A stretch of 60,505 nucleotides of DNA, counting the filler, from Bilabrum cf. latius (taxonomy: Eukaryota): assembly GCA_965178125.1 (NCBI GenBank). It is 4 parts of 4 records of this genome, joined end to end, with 100 filler letters (N's around TTAATTAATTAA, not from the genome) between each part and the next. Parts side by side here need not be neighbours in the genome. Positions count along the whole stretch, not along the records: positions 1 to 15,356 come from CBCXTV010000055.1; 3 more parts are not named here. One strand, written 5' to 3'. The notes under the pieces were generated by a model. That model did not search any database. It was not told the origin of the DNA and saw only the letters and a program-made list of their open reading frames with translations. Made by a program: the position numbers and the translations under genes. Position 1 is the first letter of the stretch. The number at the start of each line of letters is the position of its first letter. Below are positions 1,381 to 33,585 of this stretch, piece by piece.

Positions 1381-2771
1381 TAGCGCTCCGTCCGTCTGCG
1401 GAAGGCTGTGCCCGTAGTCGCTGAGCCTGCGCCGCTTGGCGCGGTAGTGCGACCGGCCTCGCTTGCCTCGTGCGGGTTGAAGATGTTCTGCTCGACGCCG
1501 CCCTTGACGTGCTTGCAGCGCTGGTTGTAGAGCGCGGGGTCCAAATCTAGCGTCGGTGCGCACTCACACATGATGCGGAACGGAAAGTCATACTGATCAT
1601 CGTCGGGTGTCCCACGCTTGACCTGCTTGAGCATCTTGTCCTGGTCATTGCCCTCGTCGATCTTCCGGAGGAAGTTGACGTAGAGGCAGTGGCCCACCAC
1701 ACGCCGGGAGTTGGTGACCATGCCGTCAAGGATCTTCTGCTTGAGGTCGCGGCCCTCCGGCGTGAGGAGAAACTTCAAGATGCATGGCTCCTCCCACCAC
1801 CTCCTGTTCTCGTTCCACCAGAAGGGCCGGCTCGGGCAGACCCAATCCGCTTGCCAATAGTCCCAACTGGTCTGCTCTGAGGGGTCCCCGTTGCCATACA
1901 GGAACCACTCTCGCGGCGCACGGAAACACAAGTCGGCGTCTGTACCCGGCGGCGCATGGGTGTTGTCACAATCGGTGTCCCACTGCGAACTGTCACCGGT
2001 CTTGTTGCCGGCGATATGCGGCACCGTCCAGTACATCATCTCTGAGACATGGCCAAACCGCCAGAAAAGCCTGTCGTAGCGCTTGATGAGCCGATCCGAG
2101 TCGGCGCGCTTCAAGGCCTCCAGATGGCACTGGACTGTCATGATCTCCGTCTGCCTGGTGGCGGAATCGATGTCGGCTGAGGAACCGGCGGGCATCAGCC
2201 GATTGGCATCCGCGCCGCCGGTCGTCTTCTCCAACGCGCTCATGGCCTTCGTCCAGACCTCGTCGCTAATCTTCACATACTGCACCTCGGTGGCCTTCGG
2301 GAAGCCACCGGTGATCTCGGCCTCTGAGATGCTACGGTCGCGCGCTTGGGCAATCTCGGCGCTCGTGCGCCACTGCTCAACCTTTGCCTTCAACGAATGC
2401 GCGCTGCCGAACTGATCGAGGTGCAGTCGCTGCTCGTCCTCCTGGATCCTGGCACGCTTGTACGGAGGCGTCTCATACGAGGACACGGTGACTGCGGCCA
2501 GGAGCTCGCCCTGGTTGATCGCCAACGGCGGACACAGCTGGGCCTTACGCCCGAGCGTCCAACCGTATCCCCTGTGATCGGCGGTGGACCATATGCTGAC
2601 CTGCTTCTCCGTCGGGTCATCGCGGTTGCGGACGAGACCGCGGCGCGCAGGTTTGGCGCGCTCCCAGTCGACACAATCGCGACTCGCGTACAAGTGCGTC
2701 CCTTGCACCCGGCGGAACGGTGGTCTGCGAAGTGGCCTCCAACAAGATGAAGTGCTTCGGAGGCTGATCAT
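1380..2771 (-). CDS. Extra 3' ORF segment, unknown Trp-rich protein
   Basis: 463-aa ORF, same strand as pol, contains hairpin copy 2183-2223. Confidence 0.55.
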   Translation of the reverse strand: MISLRSTSSCWRPLRRPPFRRVQGTHLYASRDCVDWERAKPARRGLVRNRDDPTEKQVSIWSTADHRGYGWTLGRKAQLCPPLAINQGELLAAVTVSSYETPPYKRARIQEDEQRLHLDQFGSAHSLKAKVEQWRTSAEIAQARDRSISEAEITGGFPKATEVQYVKISDEVWTKAMSALEKTTGGADANRLMPAGSSADIDSATRQTEIMTVQCHLEALKRADSDRLIKRYDRLFWRFGHVSEMMYWTVPHIAGNKTGDSSQWDTDCDNTHAPPGTDADLCFRAPREWFLYGNGDPSEQTSWDYWQADWVCPSRPFWWNENRRWWEEPCILKFLLTPEGRDLKQKILDGMVTNSRRVVGHCLYVNFLRKIDEGNDQDKMLKQVKRGTPDDDQYDFPFRIMCECAPTLDLDPALYNQRCKHVKGGVEQNIFNPHEASEAGRTTAPSGAGSATTGTAFRRRTER

Positions 2772-4365
2772 TGATCGGAGTTTCTGATGAGGAGCCGGCG
2801 GGCATCAGCCGATTGGCATCCGCGCCGCCGATCTCCTCCTCCATGGCGACAATGTCGTCATCGTCGGGCGCCTGACCCGAGCTACTCGAGCCCTGAGGGG
2901 CCAAGCGCGTCTCAAGGGCAGACGGTCGCTTTCGTGGTCTGCGGAAGGGCTCGGCCTGACCGATGGCCAAGCGCGCAACCCTCTTCGCAATCTGTCCGAC
3001 GCCCGGAATCTCCGCCTCGCTGGGCTCGGACTCGTCGGTGTCGCCGCCGGACTGGAGGCAGGCGATACGTTGCCGTGCCTCGTCAGGGCTGGTCTCCGGC
3101 TCACGGTCTATGTCACCGGGCTGGTCCTGACCACCGAGCGGGGCAGTCGGTCGTGGCGCGAAGTTGATCGTCGTGCCATCGTCGAACCTGCCGTAGTAGC
3201 CGTCGACCGTGCTAGTGAGCGCGTCGCGGCCCAGCTCGGTGAGACACGTGAGCCACATCTTGTCCGTGACAAAGTCCGGATGCGGCAACTCGACATTGAG
3301 CAAGGATTGCGGCATTGAGCCCGATGGCTCGTAGCCCTGCATCAGGATGTGCCACAAGTTGGAGATGTCATTCTGCTCCGGAGTGTACTGGAGCTTCCAC
3401 TCGGTGGCATTCCGGAGGTACTGCTGCACACTTTCCTTGAGCGACATCAGCGCCAGCGGGTCATTGCCCCAGTCGATCGCAGCGTCCCTCTTCGGACCCC
3501 AATCGATGCCCACTTGGTCCATCATGGTACCGATGCAGCAGGTGTAGACGAACCTGCACATGTTCTCGTAGTCCTCACGGACCCAGAGGAAGGCGGCGGC
3601 GATCTCGTAGGCGTCTCCGATCTGCTCTTTGTTCTTGAACCAGCCGTCGAAACTCTGGACGACACCCCGGATGCTGTCGAAGCCTTGATGGCCGATGATC
3701 TCATTGACGCGCTCGGACAAGAACTCGTGCTCGTAGGCATAGGTATGGTTCTTGATCACGATGTAGCTGGCGCGCTCCTTGAGGATGCCTGCACGTAGGA
3801 ACACCTCGGTGGCCGCCCAGTCGGCGATGAGCGAGCCCAAATGGCTGATGCTCTTGAGCTCCTTCTTGAGGCCCAAGTGGCCGAATCGGATCTTGAGGTG
3901 ACAGCCCACGCTGATGGCAACGATCATCTTCTCATTGAACAAACCCTTGGGGCTGTACTCCCCCATGAAGTCGGGGAGATAGATGAGCGTTCTGCCCACC
4001 TCGAAGTCCACGTCGACAAGGCGCCGGTTGTCCTTGAAGTGCGTGTGCGCGTGCAAGAAGCCGCGCAGAGCACACTCGCATCCCCTATCCCGGAGCGGCT
4101 CCCCGTAGATGAGCGGGTCGGACTTGAACCAGTGGAGGACAACCAACAATGTCTTCTCGATGGGAATGGAGTCCTCGGCGACTGACTCGGTGACCCAACC
4201 TCCTACATTCGTGCCGAGCTGGTCGATGCGGTCGGCGAAAAGGTAGGTCCGCGTGTTTTTTTCAACGGGTTGAAGTCTCCCGCGTAAAAGTTCGTCCTGG
4301 GCGAAGTGTGCCTGGCACGAATCGGTGTGAGCATTGAAGCTGAGACGGCTGACTCCTTGGTCCAT
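2617..4365 (-). CDS. Extra 3' ORF segment with RNase III-like domain (~3540-3870)
   Basis: KELKSISHLGSLIADWAATEVF resembles ERLEFLGDAVL; KEQIGDAYEIAAAFLW resembles KxLADxFEAxxGAIY. Confidence 0.55.
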   Translation of the reverse strand: MDQGVSRLSFNAHTDSCQAHFAQDELLRGRLQPVEKNTRTYLFADRIDQLGTNVGGWVTESVAEDSIPIEKTLLVVLHWFKSDPLIYGEPLRDRGCECALRGFLHAHTHFKDNRRLVDVDFEVGRTLIYLPDFMGEYSPKGLFNEKMIVAISVGCHLKIRFGHLGLKKELKSISHLGSLIADWAATEVFLRAGILKERASYIVIKNHTYAYEHEFLSERVNEIIGHQGFDSIRGVVQSFDGWFKNKEQIGDAYEIAAAFLWVREDYENMCRFVYTCCIGTMMDQVGIDWGPKRDAAIDWGNDPLALMSLKESVQQYLRNATEWKLQYTPEQNDISNLWHILMQGYEPSGSMPQSLLNVELPHPDFVTDKMWLTCLTELGRDALTSTVDGYYGRFDDGTTINFAPRPTAPLGGQDQPGDIDREPETSPDEARQRIACLQSGGDTDESEPSEAEIPGVGQIAKRVARLAIGQAEPFRRPRKRPSALETRLAPQGSSSSGQAPDDDDIVAMEEEIGGADANRLMPAGSSSETPINDQPPKHFILLEATSQTTVPPGARDALVRESRLCRLGARQTCAPRSRPQPR

Positions 4366-4563
4366 AAGTCAAACGGTGGGGCGCCGGGCATCAGCCGATT
4401 GGCATCCGCGTCGGCGCTCCCTTCTCGCTGATCGTCGGCGTGCTCACGGCGCTCGTCGCGATTGCCCGTGGTGTAGGCATCGTTGTTCACTTCGTCGGCG
4501 GTTCGCAACCTGAGGGCAAACTGTCTGCGTCGCTCCTCGAGCACTTCTTCTTTCGTCTTGAAG

Positions 4564-6399
4564 TCAAACAAGCCCTTGCCTTCGTTGTTCGATGGTCGGG
4601 AGCGCACACATGCCCCTGTTGAGGTGCTCTGCTCCCGGGATCGCCCGGAAGTGCAGCCTGCTGTTGTTGACCATTTCCAGCAGGAGCCGGGCTCGCGCTC
4701 GCCACTTGATGCGTTTGTCGCCCGAGGAGAACTCCTCCTTCGTCTTGCGAAGCCTCTTGTTGCGCTGGTGCTCGGCCCTGCGTCGCTGGACGTCGTCGCG
4801 GTCGCTGGCCCCGGAAACGATCTGGGTGGCCCTCTGCTGAGAGGACGGAACCACCTCGGATGACATCGGTCGCATGTTGGCCGGAACTGTGGATGAGGAA
4901 GAGATGCTGTTCCCATTGGCGTCATTCAGCTCCGAGTCGCCAACCTCCAGGCTGGTCAAGGGACCGGCCCGATCATTGACCCATCCGCTCTCGAACATGT
5001 CCCGCGCGCCTCCGGTGCTCTGAGGGGTGTGCTTGTTCATCTCGATGGTGTACGGCACGAGGAAGCTGTAGTCCATGTAGCGGCCGCCTGCATGGTCCGG
5101 AATGTGGCGCTTGACAAACTGTGTGCCTTCCGGAAGCAACCCGCCGGCGGACGCAACCCACCGGTAGTTGCGGACAAGGGCGCTGTCCTCGTCGTGGTTT
5201 CCGAACCGAGCCCGGGCGATCTGCTTGAGGTCCTGACGCTTCTCGTCGCCGCGAAGGTACTCGTTCTCCAATGTGCGTTTGCGGCTGTAGTCAACGCGCG
5301 GAGGGACGTCGCCGTCATAGTCGCCGCGATCCATCACGTAGCCCGGCCTGCATCGCACTGTCACCTTGGCATTCTGGGCGCGCAAGTCATTGAAGATGCG
5401 CGCGTGGTCGTTTCCGTCCCGGAGGATGCGCGAATGCTTGTGTCGGTCGTCCTTGCTCGCAATCTTCTCGACGTCCTCGTGCAACTGAATCGGATCCATC
5501 TCAAACTCGGCGTGGGCGTCCCGGAGAGCGAGCCTGTCGGTGTACTCGGGCGGCACGGACAAGAAGTAAACGTGCGTGATGCGCAGGTCCTCGGGCATGT
5601 ACCCGTACATTGGGCGCTCGCCGAGGCTTTGCCACAAGTAGCGATTCAGCCGAGCGACCACACGGAGGACTGCGGTCATGGGGAGCGTGCCGTCGGTGGC
5701 CAACAAAGTGGCCGGAGGAAAGTCCTGCGTCTCCCTGATCCTCGGGTGGCTGCAAGCCTCCTGGCAGTCCTTGGTCAGCCGCACCAACGGCACCGAAGCT
5801 GCGGGCCGCATGATGAAGTCTTCATTGATCAAGTCGAGGATCGGGCCCGGGCCCTTCGTCTCGTTGTTGACATCGCCGAGATGCCAGGCGCCGAGGGTGA
5901 ACGAACCTTGGCCGTAGCTAGGCTTGAGGCCCTGTCGGATGATGAACGGCACATTCGACGCCCAAGTGCCATGGAAGAGACAGTCCGGCTCGCTGCCGAA
6001 CGCATCCGGAATGGGCTTGCCGTTGGGAATGCTCACCATGTAGCCTGGCGGAATGACCTGTGCCGCGGTCGAAAGCGTCTTCTGGTACATGAGCTTGTTG
6101 CTCGGCCACATTAAGCACGAGTCCGAGTAGGAGCCGGCGTGCCGGCACTCCAAGAAGAAGTGGCTGATGGACGATCGCGGCGCGAACATCTGCGGATGGC
6201 CGACATCGGCCAGCCATTGGATGCACTCGAACTTCTTGGCGTACGTATGGATCGCATTGGAGTGGATGTCCGTATTGACGCTTCTGGGAGCGCGCAATTG
6301 ATCGTTCCGCACCAATTGGTTGCGGAAGTCGATGTGGAACTGGGCCTGCTGCCTCGACGGGAGGCCAGCAGCCGGTATCCATCGCGCGAACTCCGGCAA
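4564..6399 (-). CDS. Extra 3' ORF segment with ADP-ribosyltransferase (PARP/Tpt1-like) fold motif
   Basis: CLFHGTWASNVPFIIRQGLKPS matches the [LY]HGT-x5-7-I-x3-GL ART strand; later triad residues look degenerate. Confidence 0.55.
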   Translation of the reverse strand: MPEFARWIPAAGLPSRQQAQFHIDFRNQLVRNDQLRAPRSVNTDIHSNAIHTYAKKFECIQWLADVGHPQMFAPRSSISHFFLECRHAGSYSDSCLMWPSNKLMYQKTLSTAAQVIPPGYMVSIPNGKPIPDAFGSEPDCLFHGTWASNVPFIIRQGLKPSYGQGSFTLGAWHLGDVNNETKGPGPILDLINEDFIMRPAASVPLVRLTKDCQEACSHPRIRETQDFPPATLLATDGTLPMTAVLRVVARLNRYLWQSLGERPMYGYMPEDLRITHVYFLSVPPEYTDRLALRDAHAEFEMDPIQLHEDVEKIASKDDRHKHSRILRDGNDHARIFNDLRAQNAKVTVRCRPGYVMDRGDYDGDVPPRVDYSRKRTLENEYLRGDEKRQDLKQIARARFGNHDEDSALVRNYRWVASAGGLLPEGTQFVKRHIPDHAGGRYMDYSFLVPYTIEMNKHTPQSTGGARDMFESGWVNDRAGPLTSLEVGDSELNDANGNSISSSSTVPANMRPMSSEVVPSSQQRATQIVSGASDRDDVQRRRAEHQRNKRLRKTKEEFSSGDKRIKWRARARLLLEMVNNSRLHFRAIPGAEHLNRGMCALPTIEQRRQGLV

Positions 6400-6585
6400 C
6401 TAACCACGGATGGCCTGGGCAATTGTTCTTCTCATGGAACAGCGGCAGGTTGTCGTAGAGGTCGGCTTGCGGATTTCGAGGAATCGACTGTTGCTGTGGG
6501 CGAGATGCGTACCAACTGGTCTTGCCGGCGCTTTGTCGGGACTCACCCGACACCCAAGGTTGCTGTGTCTGCGAAGACGCGGGCA

Positions 6586-8445
6586 TCAGCCGATTGGCAT
6601 CCGCGCCGCTCTCCGCCGTCTGTTGGTCCGTGTGGGACGACCAGTCCTCGGTGCTACGCCACGAGCGCTGGTCCTTGAACTGTCCCACCATGAACCGTCG
6701 GACTGTTGTTGGGACCAGCCCCACTGCTGGCCCGCACTGCTGGCGTAGGTCTGATGCTGCGCCTCGCTGCCCGACGTCCAGTGGCTGCTGGATGACGACC
6801 ACTGCTGTGACGAGGAGGAGGCGTCGGGAATCGAATTCGGTTGACCGGCAGGGTTCAGCCGATTGGCATCCCCGCCGCCGGTCCAAGCGCTGCCTTCTTG
6901 CCGTCCGCGTGTCCCGCCTTTCCGTCTGGCATGCCAGCCGCCACCGGCCGACATCGCAAAGAAGTGTGGTGAAGCGGTAGGTCTAGTGACGCGGGCGGCG
7001 CGCGGCAGAGTTCGGGCGCAGTCTTCAAGGACCGGAGTCCTGGAAACGGCTAGTGGCGGAATGACACATATGAAGTGGATGCCATCTAGAGCTGGACAGA
7101 AGCGAGTGCATGGCACTGAGCTGGAAGAAGTGAAGTTCTCGCGTAGACCCGCCGGCATCAGCCGATTGGCATCCGCGCGGCAGGCCATCAACATGCTGTC
7201 CTGCTGAGCAATGCCTTCGGTCGGACTGACGATCGGTCGCTTCGCGGACCACGCGTCCGACTCGTGCTGAATGAGCATCTTGCCAGACATCAGATCGTGC
7301 AACAATTCGCGAGACACGGCCCCGTTTGTGAGGCCATATGCTGTCATGTCACGAGTGTCAAACCAGTCAATGGAGGACAAGACGCGACAGTCGAGAAGTT
7401 CGCGCAAGTGTTGGACATGCACAAACAACGACTTATCTGCCGGGGTCTTCACGGTGCTTGCGGTGACTGCCGCGTACACCGACTTGGCGTCAACATACAA
7501 AGCCATTGGCACAAACCCTCCGCTCTCACGGCATGCGCGCGCGACTTCAGCTGTCATCGGTCCGGTCTCGACTTCGCGCAGCATTTGTGCAACTAGGATG
7601 CCCTGGTCAACTGCATCGCCCGCCGAGAGAAGCTCAGCGGCGAAAGTGCTGCGAGTGACATGTCTTTTCGAGCGGCACGCCCACTCAATCACATGTGCAT
7701 GTGCTGTTTTGGTGAAGGAAACAGATTGGCTGGTGGGGTTCAGCCAATTGGCATCCCCGCCACCAGCCTGTCCGGCACTGGCCGATCGTGCGTCGCTGCT
7801 TGATTCGCACCTGAGGAACAATGCACCCCGGAGGCTGTAGCCGTCCTCCGGCTCCTTCTTGAATGCTGCGTCTGAGACCACTCGCAGGTGCGGAACGGTG
7901 GTCCTGTCGAAGGGAGCAAAGTGGAGCTTCTTCGGATTGCGCTGGACCCAGCGCAAGACTCGGTTGAGCTTCCGAGCATGCTCCACTCGGGGCTTTGCAA
8001 CATTGCGCTGAAGGGCGCAGATGAACACGAAAATGTCCACACGAGTGTGCGCGAGGTAGGCGAGCGCACCGAGCAGAGATCGGTAAAGGGCGTGAAGTTC
8101 CGTACCGACCTCGTCGTCGTCATTGCCGGAAGAGACCTGCGGGTGCGCGATCGGCTTCAACGCGTTTGCAAAGTGAATCTGGTCCAGAGAGACCGCGAGG
8201 GTCTTCGGACATTGAACATGACGCACGCCGCAGTTGGTGAACTCGTGTTTGTTCACCTTGAGTTCGCCAAAGACTTTCTGGATCTCGGCCATGGCTGTGT
8301 GGACAACGGCAGGGTCCCCGGCAAACTTCAGATCGTCGACGTGTTTCGTCATTATCAGCTTCAATGCCCCGTGCTTGTCATGGTAGTAGCATAGCTCCTG
8401 GTCGATAGTGCTCGGCTGAAGTCCGCACTTGTCACGGGTGACCAT
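6586..8445 (-). CDS. Copia RT C-terminal part plus RNase H (RNase H ends near 7250)
   Basis: KHVDDL, YRSLLGALAYL..TRVDI, VVSDAAF, RSTFAAEL, YVDAKSV, DMTAYGLT. Confidence 0.9.
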   Translation of the reverse strand: MVTRDKCGLQPSTIDQELCYYHDKHGALKLIMTKHVDDLKFAGDPAVVHTAMAEIQKVFGELKVNKHEFTNCGVRHVQCPKTLAVSLDQIHFANALKPIAHPQVSSGNDDDEVGTELHALYRSLLGALAYLAHTRVDIFVFICALQRNVAKPRVEHARKLNRVLRWVQRNPKKLHFAPFDRTTVPHLRVVSDAAFKKEPEDGYSLRGALFLRCESSSDARSASAGQAGGGDANWLNPTSQSVSFTKTAHAHVIEWACRSKRHVTRSTFAAELLSAGDAVDQGILVAQMLREVETGPMTAEVARACRESGGFVPMALYVDAKSVYAAVTASTVKTPADKSLFVHVQHLRELLDCRVLSSIDWFDTRDMTAYGLTNGAVSRELLHDLMSGKMLIQHESDAWSAKRPIVSPTEGIAQQDSMLMACRADANRLMPAGLRENFTSSSSVPCTRFCPALDGIHFICVIPPLAVSRTPVLEDCARTLPRAARVTRPTASPHFFAMSAGGGWHARRKGGTRGRQEGSAWTGGGDANRLNPAGQPNSIPDASSSSQQWSSSSSHWTSGSEAQHQTYASSAGQQWGWSQQQSDGSWWDSSRTSARGVAPRTGRPTRTNRRRRAARMPIG

Positions 8446-9361
8446 CTGGAGTTTGAGCGAGAAGGCGCGGGGCGCATCGACTAGCCCGTGCCTGGCTTGT
8501 CACAATGAAGGACTTCCGCGCGGGGGTAAAGCCTGGGATCTGTCGAAGTTGGGACATGTTGTAGGCCGGAAGGTAGAAGTTAACCTCGCGGGCGGGCTCG
8601 CCCGTGAGCTTGGCAAGCTCCTCGTAAGTGACACCTTGGAGAAATGCCTTGGAGATGTCTGCGGCGCAAAGAACCCAACCGCGGAGGACTGCCTCAGACA
8701 CAATGAGCTTCTGCGAGCCTCTGGTCGAAGTGCCGGCATACCTGTCAATATCCCACTTGTCGGCGTCCTTGAATCCCCTCATGGTGAGCCGAGCCCGTAT
8801 CGTCTTCTTGGCAGTAGCCGAGGAGTTCTGGAACCCTGTCTTCGTCGCGTCAACGGTCTGCTCTTCATACTTGAACTTGTACACCCATCGTGTGTCAATG
8901 GCGTTTCTGGCTTCTGTCTTTGGCTTCCGACTGAAACACTGGAGCTTTGCCCATGTCTGGAGCTCCTTGAGCATGGCATCCTCGATCTCCTTCCAATGGT
9001 CATTGACCTGTTGTGGAGAGAGCACATCGTCATCGCGCTGCACCACGGCGCGTCGAGCGTTGTTCGTCTCGACCTTCAAGACGAGCTGCTCGTTCGGATT
9101 GAGTGCTCGGCCATTGCTCCACATGAGGTTCGCCGTGGGGTACGGGACGATGAGCTCAACGCTGTCGTCAAGTGTTTCGGGCGCGTGCAAGACCGCGTCC
9201 TTGTGGCCAATGACATTGAACTCAAGGAAAAGCTCCATGGGAAGCCGGTCCAACTGTTGAAAAGCACAGTGTGGGTCTGCCGGCATCAGCCGATTGGCCT
9301 CCGCACGGCAGACCACGTCTTCTGCCGCTTGGGCGGCATCCGAGGAATCGGCGATGAGCAC
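8432..9361 (-). CDS. Copia-type reverse transcriptase, N-terminal part
   Basis: KELQTW..NAIDTRWVYKFK..IRARLTMRGFKD..ADISKAFLQG. Confidence 0.9.
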   Translation of the reverse strand: MLIADSSDAAQAAEDVVCRAEANRLMPADPHCAFQQLDRLPMELFLEFNVIGHKDAVLHAPETLDDSVELIVPYPTANLMWSNGRALNPNEQLVLKVETNNARRAVVQRDDDVLSPQQVNDHWKEIEDAMLKELQTWAKLQCFSRKPKTEARNAIDTRWVYKFKYEEQTVDATKTGFQNSSATAKKTIRARLTMRGFKDADKWDIDRYAGTSTRGSQKLIVSEAVLRGWVLCAADISKAFLQGVTYEELAKLTGEPAREVNFYLPAYNMSQLRQIPGFTPARKSFIVTSQARASRCAPRLLAQTPDGHP

Positions 9362-9947
9362 CGTCGACAGAATCTGCTACATCTCTGGGTCCTCGTGGAC
9401 AAGAAAGTCCGACAGGAGCGACTGCTTCGTCCCGTCGCTGTCGTCAACTTCGCTGATGCGTTCCCCGGGGATCGTCGAAAGTCGCTGTGCGCTGTCGGTT
9501 GCTGCAGACGGTGTCTCAGGTGAAATATCCTTGGTGCCTTGGGACTGCTGCTCGACAAGGTCGACCGACTCCGCGTGGCAATAGAACTGAACCACGCAGT
9601 AGTCGGCCCAACGATGGCCCACGGTGGACTGCACGGAGAATCGCGGAATGTGGCCGGTATGAGCGGCGGTCTGCTGGGGAAGATGTACGGCCCGCCTCCT
9701 CGGGGCCACAACATGCTGACACACAACTCATGCCCTTGAGAGCCGCCGATGTGGCGCGCAACCATGCCGGCCTTAACCGTGACCACATTGTCGAGCTGGA
9801 GATGGTTCTCGCCGAAGAAACGGGCTGCGCACAGGAACTCGGATCGAAAAGTAGGCGCATACGCATTGGTGGTCCTGCGCCAGCCAGTCGGCGTCTTCTC
9901 GGGTCCCACACTGACGGTGGAACCCTCATTGCGCTGATTCACCATTC

Positions 9948-10385
9948 TCACCACTGTCGACCAAGCGTTGCGGTGCACGGGGCTGTGGAAAGTCGCGTAG
10001 GAGACGTCCATGGTGAAGTATAGGAGAGGTGACGTCTTACGTGGCGGATGGCCACCTCGTACAACCCACGCAACCACCGGACGGTGACCATGCCCTGAGG
10101 CAGATTGGTGAGGTCGACAACGGTTGCCGGTCCGTACCATCCCGAAACGTCCTTGGTCGAAGGCTCACGGTAGAAGTCAACCTCGTCGCCCAGCCGGAGG
10201 TGCAACTGCTCACCTGCCATAGTCGTCCTTGTGCTGAGCGCTCTGTTGATCCTGGCCTGGGCTGAGCCCTCGACAATGGACTGCACGGCAAGCTCTCGGA
10301 GCCTGTGAGCGGCCAACAAGTCTGTGTTTCGCTTGGAGTTGGCCGGGTAGTCGATCTGGTCGGCGCTCGGAAGGATATGCGGCAC
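9948..10385 (-). CDS. Integrase C-terminal SH3-like region
   Basis: GDEVDFYR...GWYGPATVV motif typical of retro-integrase C-termini. Confidence 0.65.
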   Translation of the reverse strand: MPHILPSADQIDYPANSKRNTDLLAAHRLRELAVQSIVEGSAQARINRALSTRTTMAGEQLHLRLGDEVDFYREPSTKDVSGWYGPATVVDLTNLPQGMVTVRWLRGLYEVAIRHVRRHLSYTSPWTSPTRLSTAPCTATLGRQW

Positions 10386-12098
10386 CCGGCCATAGACGGC
10401 GTTGTACGGGCGTAGGGCCGTTCATGGTGAGGAGAGCGTTTCCTGCGAAGACTGCTTCAGAGAGCACGCGCTCAAATGGAACATTGAGACCGTCGGCTCG
10501 GCATTGCGTCATGAGGCGGTGTAGGCAATCGCGCAAGATAGCACCCCGACGTTCAATGTACCGCGCGTGAGTCTCCGGGGAGCGCACCGTCAAGCGCACT
10601 CCGTGGTGGCTCAAGAAGAGCTTCGCGTCGTGACTGCCTGAGATGCCCCCCCCCCCTCGCCGTCCATAACGAGCTCCTTCGGAGGGCCGTGCAATTGAAA
10701 CCAGATGCGAGAGATGCCATTGATCAAAGTGGTAGACTCCTTATTCGGGATCACCTCGGCCGCGTGCCACCTGGTGCAGCGGTCGAGCATGTGAAGAATG
10801 GTGTGGTTATAAATGAAGACAAGGTCACACTCGACCTGTTCATTGAGCTTGTCAGGGATGGCCGAGTTGGTGGCGCTCGGTCCCGGTCTGCTCCACTCAC
10901 GGCAAACTGAGCAAGAGTGGACAACGCTGGGAATGAGGTCCAACGCCTTCTGAGGGACTCCCGCGCGGTGAAGCATGCGGGTGAGCGTCTGGGCCGGTGC
11001 ATGCCACCACCTGACATGAAGCTTGCGCAGCACACGTCTGATGACCGCTTCGTTGTCTGTGCGGAGAGCCCGAACCGAGTTGCCGATGTCGAAGTGTGTC
11101 CAGTCAAGCTGCGGTGCCTCGCCGACGGCGGCGTCGGCATACCGTGGACGGGGAGCACGACGCACCCCACCTGGTCCCGGTGCTTCGTCTGCGTCGTCTG
11201 GTACTTCAACAACGTCCGGAGGTGGAGGCGGCGCAGGCCTGTACTCTTCTGGTCCTGGGCTGCGTATGCTGCAATCGGGCGAAGCGGCTTCAGCCGATTG
11301 GCATCCGCGCGCTCCGCCCTGTTGTGCCCTGTCCGCTGCCACGATGCGTTCTTCGTCCGCCGTCCCCATAGAACGGCCGTCGGGATCGATGGGAGCGAGT
11401 CCAGCTGTGGGCTCGGTCGTGTCCGGCGGAACAGGGTCGTGAGGGAGACTGCCTCTGGAGGCACGTGTCACCGGGACGTACCCGGTGGCAAAGCGGCAGT
11501 CCCCGAAGCGTAGAGTGTGCGTTGGGTCACTTCGTGTAAGCCGGTCCTTGCACGCCTGGCACCCGGGGTAGAACGGCAACACATGGGGCCAGGCGCATTG
11601 ACCTATGACGTGGGTGTGAGAGGGATCGTCCATGGAGAGGTTGCGCTGGCATGCCCGGCACAGGCATGCTTCATTGCCGGGAGGCGCGCAAGAATCGCGC
11701 ACGGGCTGTTGTCTCTGCCCTGGCGGCCGTGGCGTCATGTGTGGCGCTGGCGGCGGCGGCACGCCAGAGCCGGAACTGGAAGATGACGATTCGGCCGGGT
11801 AGGCAAGCGTGCCTGTCCCGGACTGTTCCTCGTAACCAACCTCAACCGGGTAGCGGCCAACAAGCAATGCCGGGTCGCTCCCGAGAGAGGCAAGACCCTC
11901 ACCGCAGTCGTCGAAGTGATCCTCAATGACCTTAGCACGCTTCTTGGCAAAATGGGGGTTGCCAGAGTCTTTCTGAGCCTTGCGTCGTTCTTTCTCACGC
12001 TGCTTGGCGTCCGTCGGAAAGGCGGATGCGTCCGTCGGTGGCTCGGGTCGTCGGTGCTTGTGCTTGTCATGGACCTGTGTGAGGTCAGAACGTATCAT
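10210..12098 (-). CDS. Integrase (Zn finger and DDE core, frameshifted near 10620-10660), preceded by two CxxC...H...C repeats
   Basis: LRKLHVRWWH...CSVC; VECDLVF; MDGEGG; SPETHARYIERRGAILR in the adjacent frame; CRAC..HTHVIGQC and CQAC..HTLRFGDC upstream. Confidence 0.82.
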
Positions 12099-13020
12099 TG
12101 AACTGTGATCGGTCGTCTGTGCTGTGTCGAGTGCTGAGTCTCCAGCAAGTGCTAAGTCGTGTACTGAGTCTGGTGTGTCCTGGACGCCCTATTGGATTCC
12201 TCACGATGGAGGTGCTGGCGGGGGTCCCCGGAGCAAGCTCCGAGGCCGACGGCAACCAGGGAGTCTTCGGAACACCCCGTGTGGGTACGGTCCTCGAGCA
12301 CTGTGCACCCACCGAGACCGTTGCCCCCAACAGAAGCAAGAACGCAAGCATGAGGAGAACCAAAGTCCTCCTGAAGAGACCGCACGTGGTCCCCTTCGTC
12401 GGAATGACGTCGGTGTCCGTGTCCGGAGGGATGTTGCCGGTGCTGGCGACGTATACCTGGCGCTTGTCGATGGAATCGGGAACGAAAGTGCGAACGCATC
12501 GGCGCACAAAGCGGAAGACATCGGAACCGTGCGTCCTGTTCCAGATGTCGAGCCACGTACATCGCTGGCTGAGTCGCCTGCCATCCGGAACGGAGAACAC
12601 CGTCACACGCGTGCCGGCGTTGATGGCTGGCGCGACCATGCTCTTCAACGTGTGCTCGAATCCCGGATTCATCTGTGGAGGCACTTCGATGAGCAATTGC
12701 TTCCCCAACCATGGGAGATGGTCCTGGTTGCGGATGCGCATCGCGTCTGACAAGCGATGCATCGTACGCCCGGTCAACCCGTGGTCCTTGCACATGCTCA
12801 ACTTCTGGCGACTGCCTGTGATGTGGGCGGTGCCTGCAACAAAGAAAGCATTGAACCCGGTGGCATTGAGCACACTGCACGGATATGACATGCGGAAGTT
12901 GTCAGAAGGGACCCCGCCAGCATCAGCCGATGCGCATCCGCCTGGCGCCAGGAGGTCCAGACGGAACGGGAAGGACCGGAGGCGCCGTGGGTGCTGGCGT
13001 CTTCGGCGCTGTCGGAACAA
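12085..13020 (-). CDS. Uncharacterised pol segment between protease and integrase
   Basis: 311-aa ORF in the polyprotein direction; no motif recognised with confidence. Confidence 0.4.
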   Translation of the reverse strand: MFRQRRRRQHPRRLRSFPFRLDLLAPGGCASADAGGVPSDNFRMSYPCSVLNATGFNAFFVAGTAHITGSRQKLSMCKDHGLTGRTMHRLSDAMRIRNQDHLPWLGKQLLIEVPPQMNPGFEHTLKSMVAPAINAGTRVTVFSVPDGRRLSQRCTWLDIWNRTHGSDVFRFVRRCVRTFVPDSIDKRQVYVASTGNIPPDTDTDVIPTKGTTCGLFRRTLVLLMLAFLLLLGATVSVGAQCSRTVPTRGVPKTPWLPSASELAPGTPASTSIVRNPIGRPGHTRLSTRLSTCWRLSTRHSTDDRSQFNDTF

Positions 13021-13089
13021 TCGTGCGAAGTGTCGAGTCGCATTGAACCGTCGGCTCCGAGGAGAAGTCCGGTGGGCTGCTTTCCTGTG

Positions 13090-14250
13090 TCAGCAAGCTG
13101 ACCTTCTTAGCCGCAAGGCCTTTTCACCAAAATTGCTGCAGGGAAGCAAGAGATGCCCACTCGGCGAAGTCTCGAGCTTGAAGCTCTCGGTGCCCGACGG
13201 AAGCGCCTTCGTCAAGTCGGAGTCTCCTTCGCCGCACACGTACATTCGCATGTCCTGGAGGTCGAGAATCGCTCGGGCGTTGCGCGTGGTGGCCAGGCCA
13301 AGCAGGCCCGGCAACTCAGAGTTTGGCACGATCGGCGTCAAGAACTCTCCCAAGATAGCATCTGCGCGCGTGTCGGACTTGAGCACGATGGGCAGGCGTG
13401 CGTCTTTGCTGCGCCACTGCGATCCATGGCCAACGCCGGAGACGCGTAGTGGTTTCGGCCTGACGTGCTCGGACGGACGGTAGCCGTGATCAATGGCCTG
13501 GAGCCCGAGCTTCCGGGCCCACTGGTCGCCGCGCAAGTTGCCCACAGACCCTGGGTCGATCAAGAGGGCACTGCTGCCGTCCAAGACCCGTGTATTCATG
13601 TGGTAGTAGTCTCCGGCACTATTGACCCGCAACGGCGCGTCGTCGTACGATGTGTAATGGGAGGCTCCTGCCGTCGTCGTGACCGGATCGGAGGCGTCGT
13701 CCGTGCTGGAGGGCCGCGGCAAGACGGCGTCGTCGTCGTTACTCAGGTCGAGCTCCGGATCTACCTGCAGCCATTCGAGATCGGGTCGTGCTTTGGCAAT
13801 GCGTCGAAGGGCATGCCTGACCTTCGGGTGCCACGTGTTGGAGGGCGTGCTGAGGACGCCGTCAACACGATGGTTGCCTGGCACCTTGGCGTCCGGCGGA
13901 TGGACTGCCCACAGTGTGGGGGCCGTCGCAAGGGAGTTGCGGGGCGTGCCGTCAATGTCGGTGTAGGTCTTGGCGTACACGGCCTTGGAGCACGACGGAC
14001 AGACCAAATTGTGGAAAATCGGCTCGCAAGTCTCGGACTGGTATATGTGGTGATCGTAGTCCGCTTGGATGGGCTCGACCTTGGCCTTGAACACCTCGTA
14101 CTGCTCGTTCTCGTACGTGCTGTAGCAAGTGGCGTGCATGCGGCAGCCGCACGAGAGGACAACCTGGTTCGAATCTGCGGACTCGATGCGGCCGTCGTCG
14201 TGTCGAACCTCGCACCACGGCTTCGTGCACACGGCGCACGTGTCATGACC
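13090..14250 (-). CDS. RING-like zinc finger plus retropepsin-like aspartic protease (pol fragment)
   Basis: CAVC...LSCGCRMHATC...CPSC spacing; ALLIDPGSVGNL catalytic-type motif followed by PGLLGL. Confidence 0.65.
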   Translation of the reverse strand, partial: GHDTCAVCTKPWCEVRHDDGRIESADSNQVVLSCGCRMHATCYSTYENEQYEVFKAKVEPIQADYDHHIYQSETCEPIFHNLVCPSCSKAVYAKTYTDIDGTPRNSLATAPTLWAVHPPDAKVPGNHRVDGVLSTPSNTWHPKVRHALRRIAKARPDLEWLQVDPELDLSNDDDAVLPRPSSTDDASDPVTTTAGASHYTSYDDAPLRVNSAGDYYHMNTRVLDGSSALLIDPGSVGNLRGDQWARKLGLQAIDHGYRPSEHVRPKPLRVSGVGHGSQWRSKDARLPIVLKSDTRADAILGEFLTPIVPNSELPGLLGLATTRNARAILDLQDMRMYVCGEGDSDLTKALPSGTESFKLETSPSGHLLLPCSNFGEKALRLRRSAC

Positions 14251-15302
14251 GCGACTTGAGGCTGATCCTTATTGCTGGGGACGACGCTCTCCTTCCTCAC
14301 GACGGCGGTGTCATCGCCCGTGATCGCCACGGGCTTCGTCGTGTCATTCGTGTCATCCAAACGGGGCGTTGCCTGTCTGGCCTTGCAAGTGTCCTCGACA
14401 GGTGTATCGGGCGAAGTCCGCTGCTCAACGGAGGACCCGCGTGCCCGGGAGGTGGAGTTCTCCGCCGAACTGTGGCTGCGAGAAGAGCTGCCACGTCGGT
14501 GGGCGCGTCCCTTCAACTGCTGCTGCTGGACATGTGTGCCTTTGGTCGAGCATCGCGGGGTCTGTGTGCGAGGAACTGGTAGATCGCCTGGTGGTGAAGA
14601 TGTCGGAACGGGAGGCGACATCTGGCTCGTCTCGGCCGCCGCACGGAAGGTGGCGGCCACGTCGAAGTCCCGGTCCTGCATCGTGACGTCCAACGTCTCC
14701 GGAGCTGGCGGCAGGCCAGGATACGTGACGTCCGTCTCATGCACCAAGGTCGCACTGCCAATGCCTGAGACCGGCGCTGATGGAGGCGCCGGAACGGGCA
14801 CGTGGAGCTGGGGTCTCCACGGGCTGTGGCCCGAGGTGTAGGATGTGCTGGCCATAGGTGTTGGTGGCGCCAAAGAACGGCTCTGTGTGGTGTTGCTACC
14901 GAGGGCACTCTGCGCCATGTTCATCACATTGACTGCCACACTGGAAAGAGCATCCCACGCCTGGCCACCGACCGTCTGGGAAGCAGATTGGCCGGTGGGG
15001 TTCAGCCCATTGGCATCCCCGCCACCAGCCTGTCCAACACCCTTATCGTTCGTCGGCAGAGGCGGACCCCCGAATGTGCCATACATGGACTGGACCGGCA
15101 CCTGTTGTGTTCGTTGTGTGCTGGCGCTGCTGGCCGAGTGCCGGTCGGGCGTGAAAGACATCGGGACACCGGGGGCGCCCGGAAAACTTGCGTAGTTGGT
15201 CGTCGGTGGCTGGATGTTCGTCGGCGGGCTCGGTGGTTGGATGTTCGTCGGTGGGCTCGGGGCCGGCGCAGTCGGCGGCGGCCTGAGCCTGGCATTGATC
15301 AA
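13761..15302 (-). CDS. Pro/Ser/Thr-rich linker of the gag-pol polyprotein (only ~14250-15302 likely in the true frame)
   Basis: Long low-complexity ORF directly upstream of the RING/protease ORF; contains hairpin copy 14990-15030. Confidence 0.5.
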   Translation of the reverse strand: MINARLRPPPTAPAPSPPTNIQPPSPPTNIQPPTTNYASFPGAPGVPMSFTPDRHSASSASTQRTQQVPVQSMYGTFGGPPLPTNDKGVGQAGGGDANGLNPTGQSASQTVGGQAWDALSSVAVNVMNMAQSALGSNTTQSRSLAPPTPMASTSYTSGHSPWRPQLHVPVPAPPSAPVSGIGSATLVHETDVTYPGLPPAPETLDVTMQDRDFDVAATFRAAAETSQMSPPVPTSSPPGDLPVPRTQTPRCSTKGTHVQQQQLKGRAHRRGSSSRSHSSAENSTSRARGSSVEQRTSPDTPVEDTCKARQATPRLDDTNDTTKPVAITGDDTAVVRKESVVPSNKDQPQVAVMTRAPCARSRGARFDTTTAASSPQIRTRLSSRAAAACTPLATARTRTSSTRCSRPRSSPSKRTTITTYTSPRLASRFSTIWSVRRAPRPCTPRPTPTLTARPATPLRRPPHCGQSIRRTPRCQATIVLTASSARPPTRGTRRSGMPFDALPKHDPISNGCR

Positions 15303-15356
15303 ATCCTGGTACGGGTGGTCCGACTGACTGCACGGAACTTGCGCCGAGGCCTGGAT

Positions 15357-15456
15357 NNNNNNNNNNNNNNNNNNNNNNNNNNNNNNNNNNNNNNNNNNNN
15401 TTAATTAATTAANNNNNNNNNNNNNNNNNNNNNNNNNNNNNNNNNNNNNNNNNNNN
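15357..15456. other. Artificial contig linker N44-TTAATTAATTAA-N44
   Basis: Six-frame-stop spacer flanked by 44 Ns on each side. Confidence 0.98.
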
Positions 15457-17359: not shown

Positions 17360-17518
17360 ATGCGCTCATGATTGCGATTCGACTTGAGCCTGGGAATCCT
17401 CTGCAGCCTGCCGGCGAATCCGGCGCCGCACCAACAGAATGCGCTCATGATTGCGATTCGACTTGAGCCTGGAAATCCTCTGCAGCCTGCCTGCGAATCC
17501 GGCGCCGCACCAACAGAA
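17360..17518. repeat. 79-bp tandem duplication (2 copies)
   Basis: atgcgctcatgattgcgattcgacttgagcc...caccaacagaa at 17360 and 17439. Confidence 0.9.
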
Positions 17519-30646: not shown

Positions 30647-30746
30647 NNNNNNNNNNNNNNNNNNNNNNNNNNNNNNNNNNNNNNNNNNNNTTAATTAATT
30701 AANNNNNNNNNNNNNNNNNNNNNNNNNNNNNNNNNNNNNNNNNNNN
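30647..30746. other. Artificial contig linker
   Basis: N44-TTAATTAATTAA-N44. Confidence 0.98.
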
Positions 30747-30881
30747 GAAGACTGACATTTTGTATTTTTTGCCTCTACGTTGGTTCTTTTTCCTGCGTCA
30801 GTTCGTGTGCGGTGTGCTTCGACTGATGGGAATGTGCGTGCTTCCTGTTGACAACACGGGTGCTCTCCGAGCGGCGCCCGT

Positions 30882-33155: not shown

Positions 33156-33585
33156 GGCCCGAGTGTGGTGGTACGATTCGATCGTACACAGGCATATTAA
33201 GATGTGTCTCGAGCCGAGAGCAATGCGGGGGCGAGCCACTGATGGGAAGCTTCATGTCAAGGCCCATTTCCGACAGTGCGCTCGATCCTGAGCCCCCCTC
33301 CCGAACATGCGCCCGTGCGTTGGTGCATGGTATCGGTGTGTCGCGCGCACTTTTGTGCTGTCGTTACTCGGTCGGTGGTTCGTGTGCAGATGTCCGCACG
33401 CCCCTGCCGTGCGCGGTAGACTTGCGGGTGATTTCACTTTCCCGTAATTGCGTGCCGGAGCGATTATGTCTGATCGATTCTGCGATCATGCTGGGATCGA
33501 AATGAAGACGGCGACGGGCTCATTTCATCATTTCGATATGGTGGAGATGGGCACAGCCAAACTGTCGTTTCGCCAACGTCACCAG

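Follow-up and report, generated by a model that had tools for sequence, protein, structure and literature searches.

A family of covarying, translated hairpins dispersed along the coding strand of a very long copia-like retrotransposon

Results

Host element and hairpin copies

The analysed stretch of DNA (the window) has 60,505 bases and consists of four pieces joined by N/TTAATTAATTAA linkers. The piece that bears the hairpins, positions 1-15356, is wholly internal to a very long (>15 kb) copia-like retrotransposon of a GC-rich marine protist, and no LTR was seen in it. Frameshifts and an in-frame stop show the window copy of this element to be degenerate. Its integrase-containing ORF and its reverse transcriptase/RNase H region matched Pfam below cut-off (Table 1); one homologue of the former carries PF00665, while the latter, split by a frameshift into two ORFs, has 85 homologues, many with PF07727, and is covered by alignment A1. 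RNase H is followed by further sense-strand coding sequence with high GC3 (1..7100), in which no recognised domains were found. An RNase III-like domain proposed in the sequence-only reading was not recovered, as there was no Pfam match and a signature-motif search of the element came back empty.

Table 1 Coding regions and hairpin copies in the hairpin-bearing piece of the window
Feature	Position	Strand	Score	Remarks
Integrase-containing ORF	10611..12098	(-)	Pfam rve E = 0.0036	Below curated cut-off; homologues found
Reverse transcriptase/RNase H coding region	6586..9361	(-)	Pfam RVT_2 E = 0.00019	Below cut-off
Coding sequence downstream of RNase H, ~7 kb	1..7100	(-)		Carries hairpins 7-11; runs off piece end
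Copy 1	14990..15030	(-)	62.6 bits	GGG/ACC type, loop AAUG; reads GGGDANGLNPT; 5' gag-like Pro-rich coding region
Copy 2	12911..12951	(-)	50 bits	Decayed, 2 core mismatches; GCQSAE-type frame of local ORF
Copy 3	11278..11318	(-)	61.8 bits	Reads RGCQSAE in 495-aa integrase ORF; variable linker, Cys/His-rich region to integrase N-terminus
Copy 4	9274..9314	(-)	63.4 bits	Core GAGGCC variant, bulged U; reads CRAEANRLMPAD; linker upstream of reverse transcriptase
Copy 5	7728..7768	(-)	64.7 bits	GGG/ACC type, loop AAUU; reads GGGDANWLNPT
Copy 6	7146..7186	(-)	63.8 bits	Reads CRADANRLMPAG; ~27 aa past end of RNase H conservation; most relatives' proteins finish here
Copy 7	6843..6883	(-)	65.3 bits	GGG/ACC type; reads GGGDANRLNPAG; linker after RNase H
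Copy 8	6574..6614	(-)	60.3 bits	Palindrome extends to 6571-6616
Copy 9	4379..4419	(-)	64 bits	Reads ADADANRLMPGA; separates two unannotated downstream coding blocks
Copy 10	2793..2833	(-)	67.5 bits	Stem extends to ~15 bp; reads GGADANRLMPAGS; kept in P0088
Copy 11	2183..2223	(-)	70.9 bits	Reads GGADANRLMPAGS; kept in P0087

Eleven dispersed sense-strand hairpins had been claimed, and eleven were found, about 41 nt each, on the minus strand within 2183-15030; only the one at 12911-12951 is decayed, the other ten being intact. Searching for the core 16-mer with up to three mismatches gave 13 matches in the window against a shuffle mean of 0.81 and maximum of 3, and 13 matches were reached in 0 of 100 shuffles. 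Eleven of them lie at 2195-15017, every one on the minus strand; the matches at 23205 and 49980 (2-3 mismatches) do not take up the fold of this hairpin. A covariance model trained on the eleven copies, and applied unfiltered to both strands of the 60,505 bases, picked out those copies at 50-71 bits, and the next-best match had 13 bits. The Rfam half of this suggested check gave no match at gathering scores, and in E-value mode only chance-level matches. Equal abundance outside the element family in both orientations had been named beforehand as evidence against the claim, but by the covariance model the other three pieces (45 kb, including other transposon-like repeats) held zero hairpins on either strand.

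Structure, covariation and strand preference

The anatomy was as first described, an outer stem of 9-10 bp followed by a bulged base, 3 bp and GA-U-GCC-[AAUC]-GGC-U-GA. The bulged base is C in nine of the eleven copies, U in one and G in one, and the 3-bp stem is GCG/UGC in seven, GGG/ACC in three and GCG/AGC in one. The 22-nt core GCGGATGCCAATCGGCTGATGC is nearly invariant across copies and folds into 3 bp, a symmetric GAU/UGA internal loop (pairs G.A, A.G and U.U), 3 bp and an AAUC tetraloop; the internal loop is kept in 10/11 copies, copy 4 having GAG. All 15 invariant columns of the 54 in the alignment fall within the core, and the pair of columns 19-36 is never Watson-Crick, being G.U in seven copies and G.A in four.

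It had also been noted that the outer stems differ yet stay paired, and this was the case. In alignment A5, whose rows are eleven paralogues in subfamilies so that the shuffle control overstates their independence, 92.1% of 165 cells were paired, compared with 74.7% in shuffles and 26-51% when the partners were slid; nine of 12 outer-helix pairs had changed on both sides, and the observed covariation score was reached by 0 of 500 shuffles. This DNA-level evidence comes from the eleven paralogues of one degenerate element copy only. In the outer helix, pairing alone is conserved and not sequence. The subfamilies share flanks: copies 10 and 11 (2805 with 2195) have about 64 nt at 86% identity, and copies 1 and 5 (15002 with 7740) about 66 nt at 92%.

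The sense RNA was more stable than the antisense in 11/11 copies (sums -293 vs -239 kcal/mol), although in the decayed copy 2 the hairpin was not the minimum-energy fold (z = +0.41). G.U/U.G cells numbered 19 against 4 A.C cells, an excess that is modest without the conserved G.U (12 vs 4, among related copies). Stability and these counts favour the sense strand. If all copies came from one founder by direct duplication, their uniform sense orientation would be trivial, so it is not independent evidence for RNA function, and sequence alone cannot tell DNA-level from RNA-level action.

Translation through the hairpins

The hairpins sit in coding sequence, where the polyprotein ORF encodes linkers or loops, and nine of the eleven are read in the DANRL frame, in agreement with the earlier description. 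A second frame had been ascribed to a single copy; the frame was confirmed but the number was not, since two copies (11278-11318 and 12911-12951) read GCQSAE. None of the eleven is in the frame that reads the core TGA. The relative P0113 has an uninterrupted ORF of 2396 aa that passes through six hairpins and uses both frames, with two of the six read as GC(Q/R)SAE, and at the site equivalent to copy 2 it has an intact GCRSAE.

All nine DANRL copies share the codon string GAT-GCC-AAT-CGG-CTG, whose codons make up 20%, 48%, 37%, 18% and 14%, respectively, of the codons for their amino acids outside the hairpins. Identical disfavoured codons and two reading frames support the suggested conservation at the nucleic-acid level, and they contradict peptide-only conservation, the outcome set beforehand as counting against it. 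Since both frames run through one and the same core, selection is on the nucleotides and not on the peptide. Indels relative to hairpin-lacking copies are multiples of three (20 aa and 51 nt), and the hairpins are translated through, not removed.

The 20-aa insertion is copy 5, which lies in a variable loop of RNase H as had been stated and which 10 of the 12 relatives in the alignment lack. Comparison of the window with P0001 shows identity at 15 of 17 residues of the hairpin against 4 of 10 just upstream, so in this loop the hairpin is more conserved than its surroundings. The 51 nt belong to copy 8, which is present or absent among close family copies and is missing in P0089 and P0113. Logan contigs without it lack 6565-6615 / 6569-6619, and the 51 nt are flanked by a 5-nt direct repeat, CAGAC.

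Distribution and concerted evolution

By motif, the hairpin was absent in 83 of the 85 homologues, including P0003 (67% identity). On this distribution the hairpins are recent, lineage-specific gains, and because they are absent from distant relatives and one is polymorphic, they cannot be essential to the wider family. A hairpin-peptide profile (A3) retrieved six proteins, all of this family, among 8000 scored candidates of a 5.8-billion-protein index, and four among 1.84 billion representatives, a set covered in full; these peptide searches reach gene-called coding sequence only and are blind to non-coding DNA and to hosts without gene calls. A metagenome DNA scan for the hairpin gave only chance matches among the matches listed.

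The sister lineage B (seven proteins from contigs of 9337, 9208, 16177 and 22226 bases) has G at loop position 1 in 16 of 16 hairpin readings at six sites, and this A-to-G change reads D for N, or R for Q in the other frame. The same G was found in 0 of 11 window copies and in 0 of 9 readings in two other lineage-A contigs. At three sites column 36 is U in the window and A or purine in lineage B. Copies within one element lineage change together, in concerted evolution. Six hairpins are kept across ~20-25% amino-acid divergence between lineages A and B. Other family members have extra hairpins 13-17 nt apart, and new copies resemble existing ones over 60-90 nt, flanks included.

Discussion

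These hairpins look like a repeated nucleic-acid signal, which probably binds protein. Our best reading, which we put forward tentatively, is that they would be multi-copy protein-binding hairpins on the genomic RNA, used in packaging or assembly and spread by module copying. They would form one structured-module family of one sublineage of copia-like retrotransposon >15 kb, and in the sense-strand genomic RNA they could offer multiple equivalent sites to one trans-acting protein. The candidate binder may be encoded by the element itself (Gag or the Cys/His-rich domain) or may be a host tandem-G.A-binding protein, and many nucleation points on a long RNA could lead to selective packaging or assembly. 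A template switch of the reverse transcriptase might copy an existing hairpin module into a new place, in which case every copy would be sense-oriented. A near-invariant core on a sequence-free stem, with its imperfections (bulge and internal loop) kept, is consistent with binding, and so is a feature that is non-random, sense-favoured, conserved at nucleotide level, translated, concerted and family-specific. But selection would not be needed if quasi-palindrome correction via template switching restored the complementarity of the arms, gene conversion could bring about concerted change neutrally, and the hairpins are recent gains, one of them polymorphic, that most homologues lack.

Stem-loops scattered through coding sequence are described for ssRNA viruses and HBV pregenomic RNA (PMC6281560, PMC4751978). 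As far as the excerpts of these papers go, the likeness lies in a short recognition motif common to variable stems and in the proposed binding of capsid protein at many points. The packaging signals in those excerpts are degenerate with few loop bases conserved, whereas the 22-nt core here is almost invariant, and the present hairpins, unlike them, are paralogous insertions with common flanks that evolve in concert.

The main rival, which we consider unlikely but of real weight, is a "retro-palindrome", selfish or neutral, which moves or duplicates as a small palindromic unit and is of no benefit to the element. It would spread within the family by template switching or transposition and survive only on landing in frame in tolerant linkers, and a mechanical process, either quasi-palindrome correction or arm-to-arm conversion, would maintain the complementarity of its arms. 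The lineage-specific gains (10 of 12 aligned relatives have none at the RNase H site, and 83 of 85 homologues lack the motif) fit this, as do the present/absent 51-nt unit of copy 8 with its CAGAC repeat, like a target-site duplication, the subfamilies with common flanks and the closely spaced extra hairpins. The four hairpins for which comparative data exist are all in linkers or loops of low conservation, and gene conversion would give concerted change. However, the bulge, the 3x3 internal loop and the G.U/G.A position should not survive such correction, and these are conserved best; a neutral core should decay as fast as the arms, but although the arms vary at most positions, 10 of the 11 cores have stayed intact. 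The six hairpins outlast the divergence between lineages A and B, and no copy outside the family turned up in the profile searches or the 45-kb remainder. In retroviruses direct repeats are prone to deletion during reverse transcription, so 22-nt direct repeats would be expected to be deletion-prone here as well.

Proteins tolerate Rickettsia palindromic elements and other coding palindromes at their surfaces or in linkers (PMC1779305, PMC10969869, PMC6649704). In the parts of this literature that we draw on, these palindromes occur in bacterial or organellar genomes and in many unrelated genes, whereas the hairpins belong to one nuclear retrotransposon family and, unlike the Rickettsia elements, are all sense, have a conserved imperfect core and use two reading frames.

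It is improbable, in our estimation, that the hairpins serve RNA-RNA dimerisation or compaction by loop-loop or extended-duplex pairing, or are sites for a double-strand-specific nuclease yielding sub-genomic or small RNAs. The apical 10 nt are one substitution short of a perfect palindrome, and both observed single-step palindromic variants occur, GCCAATTGGC in copy 5, P0002 and P0086 and, putatively, GCCGATCGGC in 16/16 lineage-B readings; hairpins also lie between coding blocks, as processing sites would. Yet AAUC, the loop of most copies, lacks self-complementarity, the searches for an RNase III domain in the element found none, the stems (~18 bp equivalents, interrupted) are short for Dicer-type enzymes, and the intact ORF of P0113 spans six hairpins, so expression needs no cleavage.

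Integron attC sites are imperfect hairpins with conserved extra-helical bases and variable stems that flank cassettes in one orientation; in bacteria they work in single-stranded DNA form together with a tyrosine recombinase, and they are not translated. The present hairpins resemble them as structure-defined imperfect hairpins with extra-helical bases, variable stems and a single orientation, placed between coding modules. We give little credence to the idea that they serve, as single-stranded DNA, as recombination sites or junctions which a recombinase or integrase recognises, or as a template-switch hotspot, and so join coding modules. They do lie at or near module boundaries (IN-RT, just after the RNase H end and between downstream blocks), and post-RNase H extensions differ between lineages of the wider family (P0009 and P0013 against the window lineage). 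But two copies are not at junctions (RNase H loop and Pro-rich 5' coding region), no cassette-like gain or loss of whole modules was observed, and the hairpins, unlike attC, are translated in an element whose integrase is the only recombinase identified.

The proposed likeness to a box C/D kink-turn held for the order of non-canonical pairs, as GAUG and the opposing CUGA, which matches a D box exactly, can pair as G.A, A.G, U.U and G-C in 10/11 copies. It failed for the defining 3-nt bulge, which is absent beside the G.A pairs, where the preceding bases pair (G-C, C-G, G.U); the sole bulge is one base and lies 3 bp away. The C box RUGAUGA is matched at 4 of 7 positions only, there is no guide region, and a 3-bp stem with a tetraloop caps the motif. 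No Rfam C/D family matched at gathering score, and the only C/D match, snoZ119, reached 23.7 bits where its gathering score is 70 (E = 1.8, chance level). We think it very improbable that this is a true kink-turn or a box C/D-type RNP site for an L7Ae/Snu13-family protein. A repeated peptide motif DANRLMP, acting as protease cleavage site or short linear motif with the hairpin as by-product, would suit the one frame of nine linker-borne copies, but we regard it as scarcely credible, being contradicted by the second-frame copies (two in the window and two of six in P0113), by invariant synonymous positions with disfavoured codons, and by complementary, covarying arms of 9-10 bp for which it cannot account.

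Among the closest described systems are the Ty1/copia-like elements of dinoflagellates (PMC5776459); like the present element, they are high-copy, recently expanded, ~10 kb or more in length and found in a marine alveolate. The words "hairpin", "stem-loop" and "palindrom" do not occur in that paper. Integrase lies upstream of RT-RNase H in both, whereas the present element is longer at >15 kb and continues past RNase H with ~7 kb of additional coding sequence.

Fold and covariation of the eleven hairpins

The 16-nt core of the hairpin was searched in the window at up to 3 mismatches, and this search gave 13 matches, where shuffled sequence gave 0.81 on average and never more than 3. Eleven of the 13, at 2195-15017 and without exception on the minus strand, take the hairpin fold; the other two do not. 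In an unfiltered scan of the whole window, a covariance model of the 11 copies gave them 50-71 bits and everything else 13 bits or less, and with so clean a gap the count is exactly eleven on the sense strand, as the sequence-only reading had stated. In the alignment of the copies, 15 columns are invariant over 54 aligned nt, and all 15 are within the core. It had also been claimed that the outer stems differ yet stay paired, and this held: with the structure proposed in that reading, 92.1% of 165 cells were paired, compared with 74.7% after shuffling and 26-51% with slid partners. The covariation that it described was found as well, with 9 of 12 outer-helix pairs changed on both sides and the observed score reached by 0 of 500 shuffles, but the 11 rows are paralogues in subfamilies, so the shuffle statistic overstates independence, while the slid-partner control is unaffected. 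This covariation at the DNA level is that among paralogues of one degenerate copy, and relatives were compared at the protein level. Ten of the eleven copies are intact, and the one at 12911-12951 has decayed, with 2 mismatches in the core and a z of +0.41.

Predicted folds were more stable for the sense RNA than for the antisense RNA in all 11 copies (sums of -293 vs -239 kcal/mol), and 19 cells were G.U or U.G vs 4 that were A.C (12 vs 4 without the conserved G.U). Fold energies and the excess of G.U over A.C give modest support to a structure on the sense strand. The uniform orientation also follows from descent by direct duplication, and thus it is not independent evidence.

The likeness of the core to a box C/D kink-turn, which had been proposed from sequence, stood in part. 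In the hairpin, GAUG (5') lies opposite CUGA (3') and gives the order G.A, A.G, U.U, G-C, which is the order in the non-canonical stem of the box C/D kink-turn. The box C/D consensus is RUGAUGA for the C box and CUGA for the D box; the D box is exact in 11/11 hairpins, and the C box is matched only as GAUG (4/7 positions). GA at columns 20-21 of the 5' strand faces GA at columns 34-35 of the 3' strand in every copy, where tandem sheared pairs would be possible. Columns 17-19 pair with 36-38 (G-C in 11/11, C-G or G-C in 11/11, and G.U in 7 or G.A in 4), and the sole bulged base is column 16, 3 bp from the G.A pairs. So the tandem GA and the U.U order were borne out, but the defining 3-nt bulge 5' of the G.A pairs is missing. 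The Rfam search that had been suggested gave no match at the gathering threshold (Rfam 15, whole window), and in E-value mode on 1-15356 it gave three matches with E = 0.45-1.8, all far under gathering scores and at chance level.

The element that carries the hairpins

The window consists of four pieces of about 15 kb, and arguments from neighbourhood are invalid across the linkers that join them. All hairpins are in piece 1, whose minus strand is coding almost end to end (Table). Integrase lies upstream of an RVT_2-type reverse transcriptase with RNase H on one strand, and integrase upstream of the reverse transcriptase is the domain order of Ty1/copia (Pseudoviridae-type) elements. Homologues bear PF07727 and PF00665, and in the relative P0113 all domains are joined in a single ORF. 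The most distant named relatives (26-28% identity) are from the dinoflagellate Amphidinium carterae. No long direct repeat or LTR was found within 1-15356, and the piece ends inside coding sequence at both sides, so the element termini are outside the window.

The copy in the window is degenerate, with several frame changes (e.g. about 14250-14400, 12180-12220, 8484, 6675 and 6396). At several of these sites, copies in public sequencing runs (Logan contigs of four runs were compared) bear indels relative to the window (e.g. +GTGA at 6675 and -2 at 10019), and the in-frame stop just upstream of the hairpin at 9274-9314 is Gln in the relative P0002. In some public runs the family reaches a very high abundance: in run X1 the summed word depth over the whole 15 kb is about 17,000-133,000 (contigs, from a library of unstated type).

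Table: Features of the window
Feature	Position	Strand	Remark
Pro-rich 5' region, protease-like block, Cys/His-rich region, integrase	piece 1	-	coding order, first half
RVT_2 reverse transcriptase and RNase H, ~7 kb high-GC3 coding	piece 1	-	coding order, second half
rve (integrase)	10611-12098	-	Pfam, weak, below cut-off in degenerate copy
RVT_2 (reverse transcriptase)	8432-9361	-	Pfam, weak, below cut-off in degenerate copy
~7 kb high-GC3 coding after RNase H	1-7100	-	unusual for copia-type elements
Duplicated Cys-x2-Cys ... His ... Cys motif	~11498-11680	-	between protease-like block and integrase
Linkers, N44-TTAATTAATTAA-N44	15357-15456, 30647-30746, 45744-45843
5,947-bp unit, three tandem repeats	30747-45743
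Inverted copy of 5,947-bp unit	49961-54135		fourth piece
ORF in inverted copy	52489-53649	+	DDE_1 transposase match, E = 1.5e-05
87-nt repeat	35403-35489, 41350-41436, 59738-59824		long perfect hairpin
Repeat arrays	25863-26050, 33491-34018, 39438-39965, 50929-51352; 34809-35394, 40756-41340
79-nt tandem duplication	17357-17514		96% identity

The ORFs downstream of RNase H had nothing credible in Pfam at E up to 5 and no match in a PDB sequence search. For 4564-6399 the ESM Atlas gave only weak ADP-ribosyltransferase/PARP-like leads (scores 0.76-0.79), and the AlphaFold model of 5440-6399 (minus strand), built without an alignment, had a pLDDT of 30. A different extension follows RNase H in P0009 and P0013, which belong to other lineages of the wider family. 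The RNase III-like domain that the sequence-only reading had assumed was not found in the element. The duplicated Cys/His motif is kept across distant relatives, as the consensus of their alignment shows. It may form a domain that binds zinc and nucleic acid, which would make it a candidate partner of the hairpins.

The hairpins are translated in two frames

Nine copies are translated as D-A-N-R-L. A single copy in another frame had been noted before; a second frame is indeed used, by two copies and not by one (11278-11318 and 12911-12951), whose long ORFs give G-C-Q/A-S-A. The third frame, in which the core reads M-P-I-G-stop, is used by none of the 11. The codon string GAT-GCC-AAT-CGG-CTG is common to all nine D-A-N-R-L copies, and outside the hairpins the five codons account for only 20%, 48%, 37%, 18% and 14%, respectively, of the codons of their amino acids. 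P0113, which is in the cluster of the relative P0001, was decisive: this uninterrupted ORF of 2396 aa begins with protease, continues through integrase, reverse transcriptase and RNase H and reaches into the extension, and it translates two hairpins as GCRSAE and four as DADRL. Hairpins are thus a translated part of the polyprotein, with two frames in use. Identical disfavoured codons and the use of two frames, also in the intact P0113 ORF, thus upheld the earlier claim that the constraint is on nucleotides and not on the peptide. Judged from these comparisons, what is conserved is the nucleotide sequence and the fold of the hairpin. A peptide motif, one of the lesser explanations, is contradicted by the two-frame reading.

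Copies with and without a hairpin differ in length by a multiple of three nucleotides (20 aa at the RNase H site, 51 nt at copy 8), and together with avoidance of the TGA frame this fits translation through the hairpins and not their removal, so removal as introns or as bulge-helix-bulge elements was ruled out. Programmed frameshifting at the hairpins was considered because the ORFs 6586-8445 and 9286-10140 and the relative P0090 end at the hairpin TGA. It was ruled out by frame-restoring indels in most family copies (e.g. +GTGA at 6675), by the in-frame stop of the window where P0002 has Q, and by P0113, which reads straight through; ORFs end at this TGA because wrong-frame ORFs in GC-rich DNA run on until they meet it.

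Concerted change between two lineages

Seven relatives on four contigs (P0001, P0090, P0109, P0110, P0112, P0113 and P0114) form a sister lineage, lineage B, with about 75-80% identity to the window in integrase and reverse transcriptase. The first loop base is G instead of A in 16/16 lineage-B hairpin readings at six orthologous sites, which turns Asn into Asp in one frame and Gln into Arg in the second. This G is found in 0/11 copies of the window and in 0/9 readings of two further contigs of lineage A, the window's own. Three sites with U at column 36 in the window have A or a purine in lineage B. In the RNase H-loop hairpin 15/17 residues are kept, vs 4/10 just upstream. Since the loops changed together and the hairpin outlasted its surroundings, the copies are "seen" as a class, and this would come about either through selection by a shared partner or through conversion among the copies. 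A CCAAT-box reading of GCCAATCGG was ruled out by GCCGATCGG at all lineage-B sites, and a likeness to the dinoflagellate spliced leader was judged too weak to count.

Gain and spread of copies

The sequence-only reading had placed one copy in a loop within RNase H. This is correct: the copy is a 20-aa insertion that is present in the window, P0001 and P0002; P0003 (67% identity) does not have it, nor do nine relatives that are more distant, which makes 10/12 relatives without it. By motif search, only 2 of 85 homologues had any hairpin. Copy 8 (6574-6614) is missing both in P0089, which is closely related and of lineage A, and in P0113 of lineage B. Three Logan contigs, two from X1 and one from X2, another public run, skip exactly 51 nt there. 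The 51-nt unit is bounded by a 5-nt direct repeat, CAGAC, as an insertion with a target-site duplication would be; reading of the flanks showed no such repeat around the other ten copies. A gain in the sublineage of the window and P0086 is the most parsimonious account from these comparisons. Deletion by slippage is a possible alternative, which would leave the same CAGAC pattern. The idea that one arm of copy 8 is an old target and the other its templated copy was ruled out, as both arms are missing in hairpin-free alleles.

The copies at 2195 and 2805 have about 64 nt in common at 86% identity, and for those at 7740 and 15002 the stretch is about 66 nt at 92% identity and a weaker likeness continues upstream of it. 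These common flanks indicate that new copies are duplicates of existing 60-90-nt modules. Other family members apparently have two hairpins 13-17 nt apart with a similar-looking short spacer, on three contigs that come from X1 (two) and the run X6 (one), and several Logan contigs connect one hairpin position to another, which suggests further gains or rearrangements at hairpins. All four hairpins that have comparative data sit in poorly conserved linkers or loops. Copy 6 is about 27 aa beyond the end point of the proteins of 7/12 relatives.

Distribution beyond the element

Searched with a 40-column profile of the hairpin peptide, an index of 5.8 billion proteins gave only six, all of this family, in the 8000 candidates that were scored, and 1.84 billion representatives gave four, again all of the family, with all matches examined; at these thresholds, matches with the hairpin but without similar flanks might score too low. 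The exact hairpin 23-mer had 0 matches in viral contigs and 0 in prokaryotic genome contigs, and the RT/RNase H protein had no relative in viral contigs. The exact 17-mer was found at at least 120 loci in metagenome contigs; among the matches listed, 0/119 fold as the hairpin and one more is at a contig edge. On 100 of the 120 listed loci the covariance model reached at most 29 bits, from the core alone, vs 50-71 for true copies. The listed matches are chance matches.

Equal abundance in both orientations outside the family, which the sequence-only reading had named as evidence against its view, was not seen: 11/11 copies are in sense orientation, and the other three pieces of the window (45 kb, including other repeats and the DDE_1 transposase-like ORF) have no copy. 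Presence at many unrelated loci and in both orientations, as a mobile palindrome would have, was seen neither within the window nor in the searches of proteins and of viral and prokaryotic genome contigs.

Discussion

A sequence-specific core with conserved imperfections, a stem conserved in pairing only, persistence across lineages and concerted change together characterise, as far as sequence can tell, a site in RNA or single-stranded DNA that is selected for protein binding. We put forward, tentatively and as the explanation that we favour, putative multi-copy protein-binding hairpins for packaging or assembly that would have been spread by template switching. The closest likeness for the multiplicity along an RNA of more than 15 kb is in the dispersed packaging signals along the genomic RNA of ssRNA viruses (PMC6281560, PMC4751978), where multiple stem-loops have one recognition motif; here there are eleven on the sense strand.

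The main rival, somewhat less probable, is a selfish palindrome that maintains itself, like the Rickettsia palindromic elements or coding palindromes (PMC1779305, PMC6649704). It explains the gains and the presence/absence polymorphism, but it explains the intact bulge, internal loop and core poorly. An extension of the packaging explanation, which we consider unlikely, is that the hairpins are a multi-site recognition code tying the genomic RNA of the retrotransposon to its own packaging or assembly protein, with the loop as a lineage "barcode". The all-or-none split between the AAUC-type loop of lineage A and the GAUC loop of lineage B (16/16 readings) would fit it. Packaging in each sublineage would be limited to its own RNA, so that rival sublineages could not parasitise each other, and the code would lie inside translated sequence and be copied to new places by template switching of the reverse transcriptase. 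RNA-RNA pairing or processing, attC-like junction sites and a true kink-turn are lesser rivals.

In LTR retrotransposons, a cis-acting RNA signal usually occurs once, close to the 5' end, and shows little conservation. In contrast, the structured module here has a precise definition, occurs eleven times within the polyprotein ORF, is translated in two frames and has copies that evolve in concert. In a non-exhaustive literature search, such hairpins were not described in retroelements, and no precedent in a nuclear retroelement was found. If the hairpins bind a protein, they would be a natural system for how very long retroelement RNAs are selected for packaging, how RNA structure and protein coding share nucleotides, and how sublineages of an element diverge in specificity. 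If they are selfish, they would be, within a non-exhaustive literature search, the first known palindromic element that colonises the coding sequence of a retrotransposon and propagates with it. With either explanation, dinoflagellate-like genomes can be scanned directly with the core motif and the covariance model.

Other repeats in the window

The three tandem repeats of the 5,947-bp unit were 100% identical in sampled stretches, and the inverted copy has 94-96% identity. The repeat arrays, which are long and lie in pieces other than piece 1, consist of GGGC-type 4/8/12-nt repeats and a 13-nt tandem repeat. The 87-nt repeat is unrelated to the eleven hairpins, and its third copy is apparently opposite in orientation to the first two.
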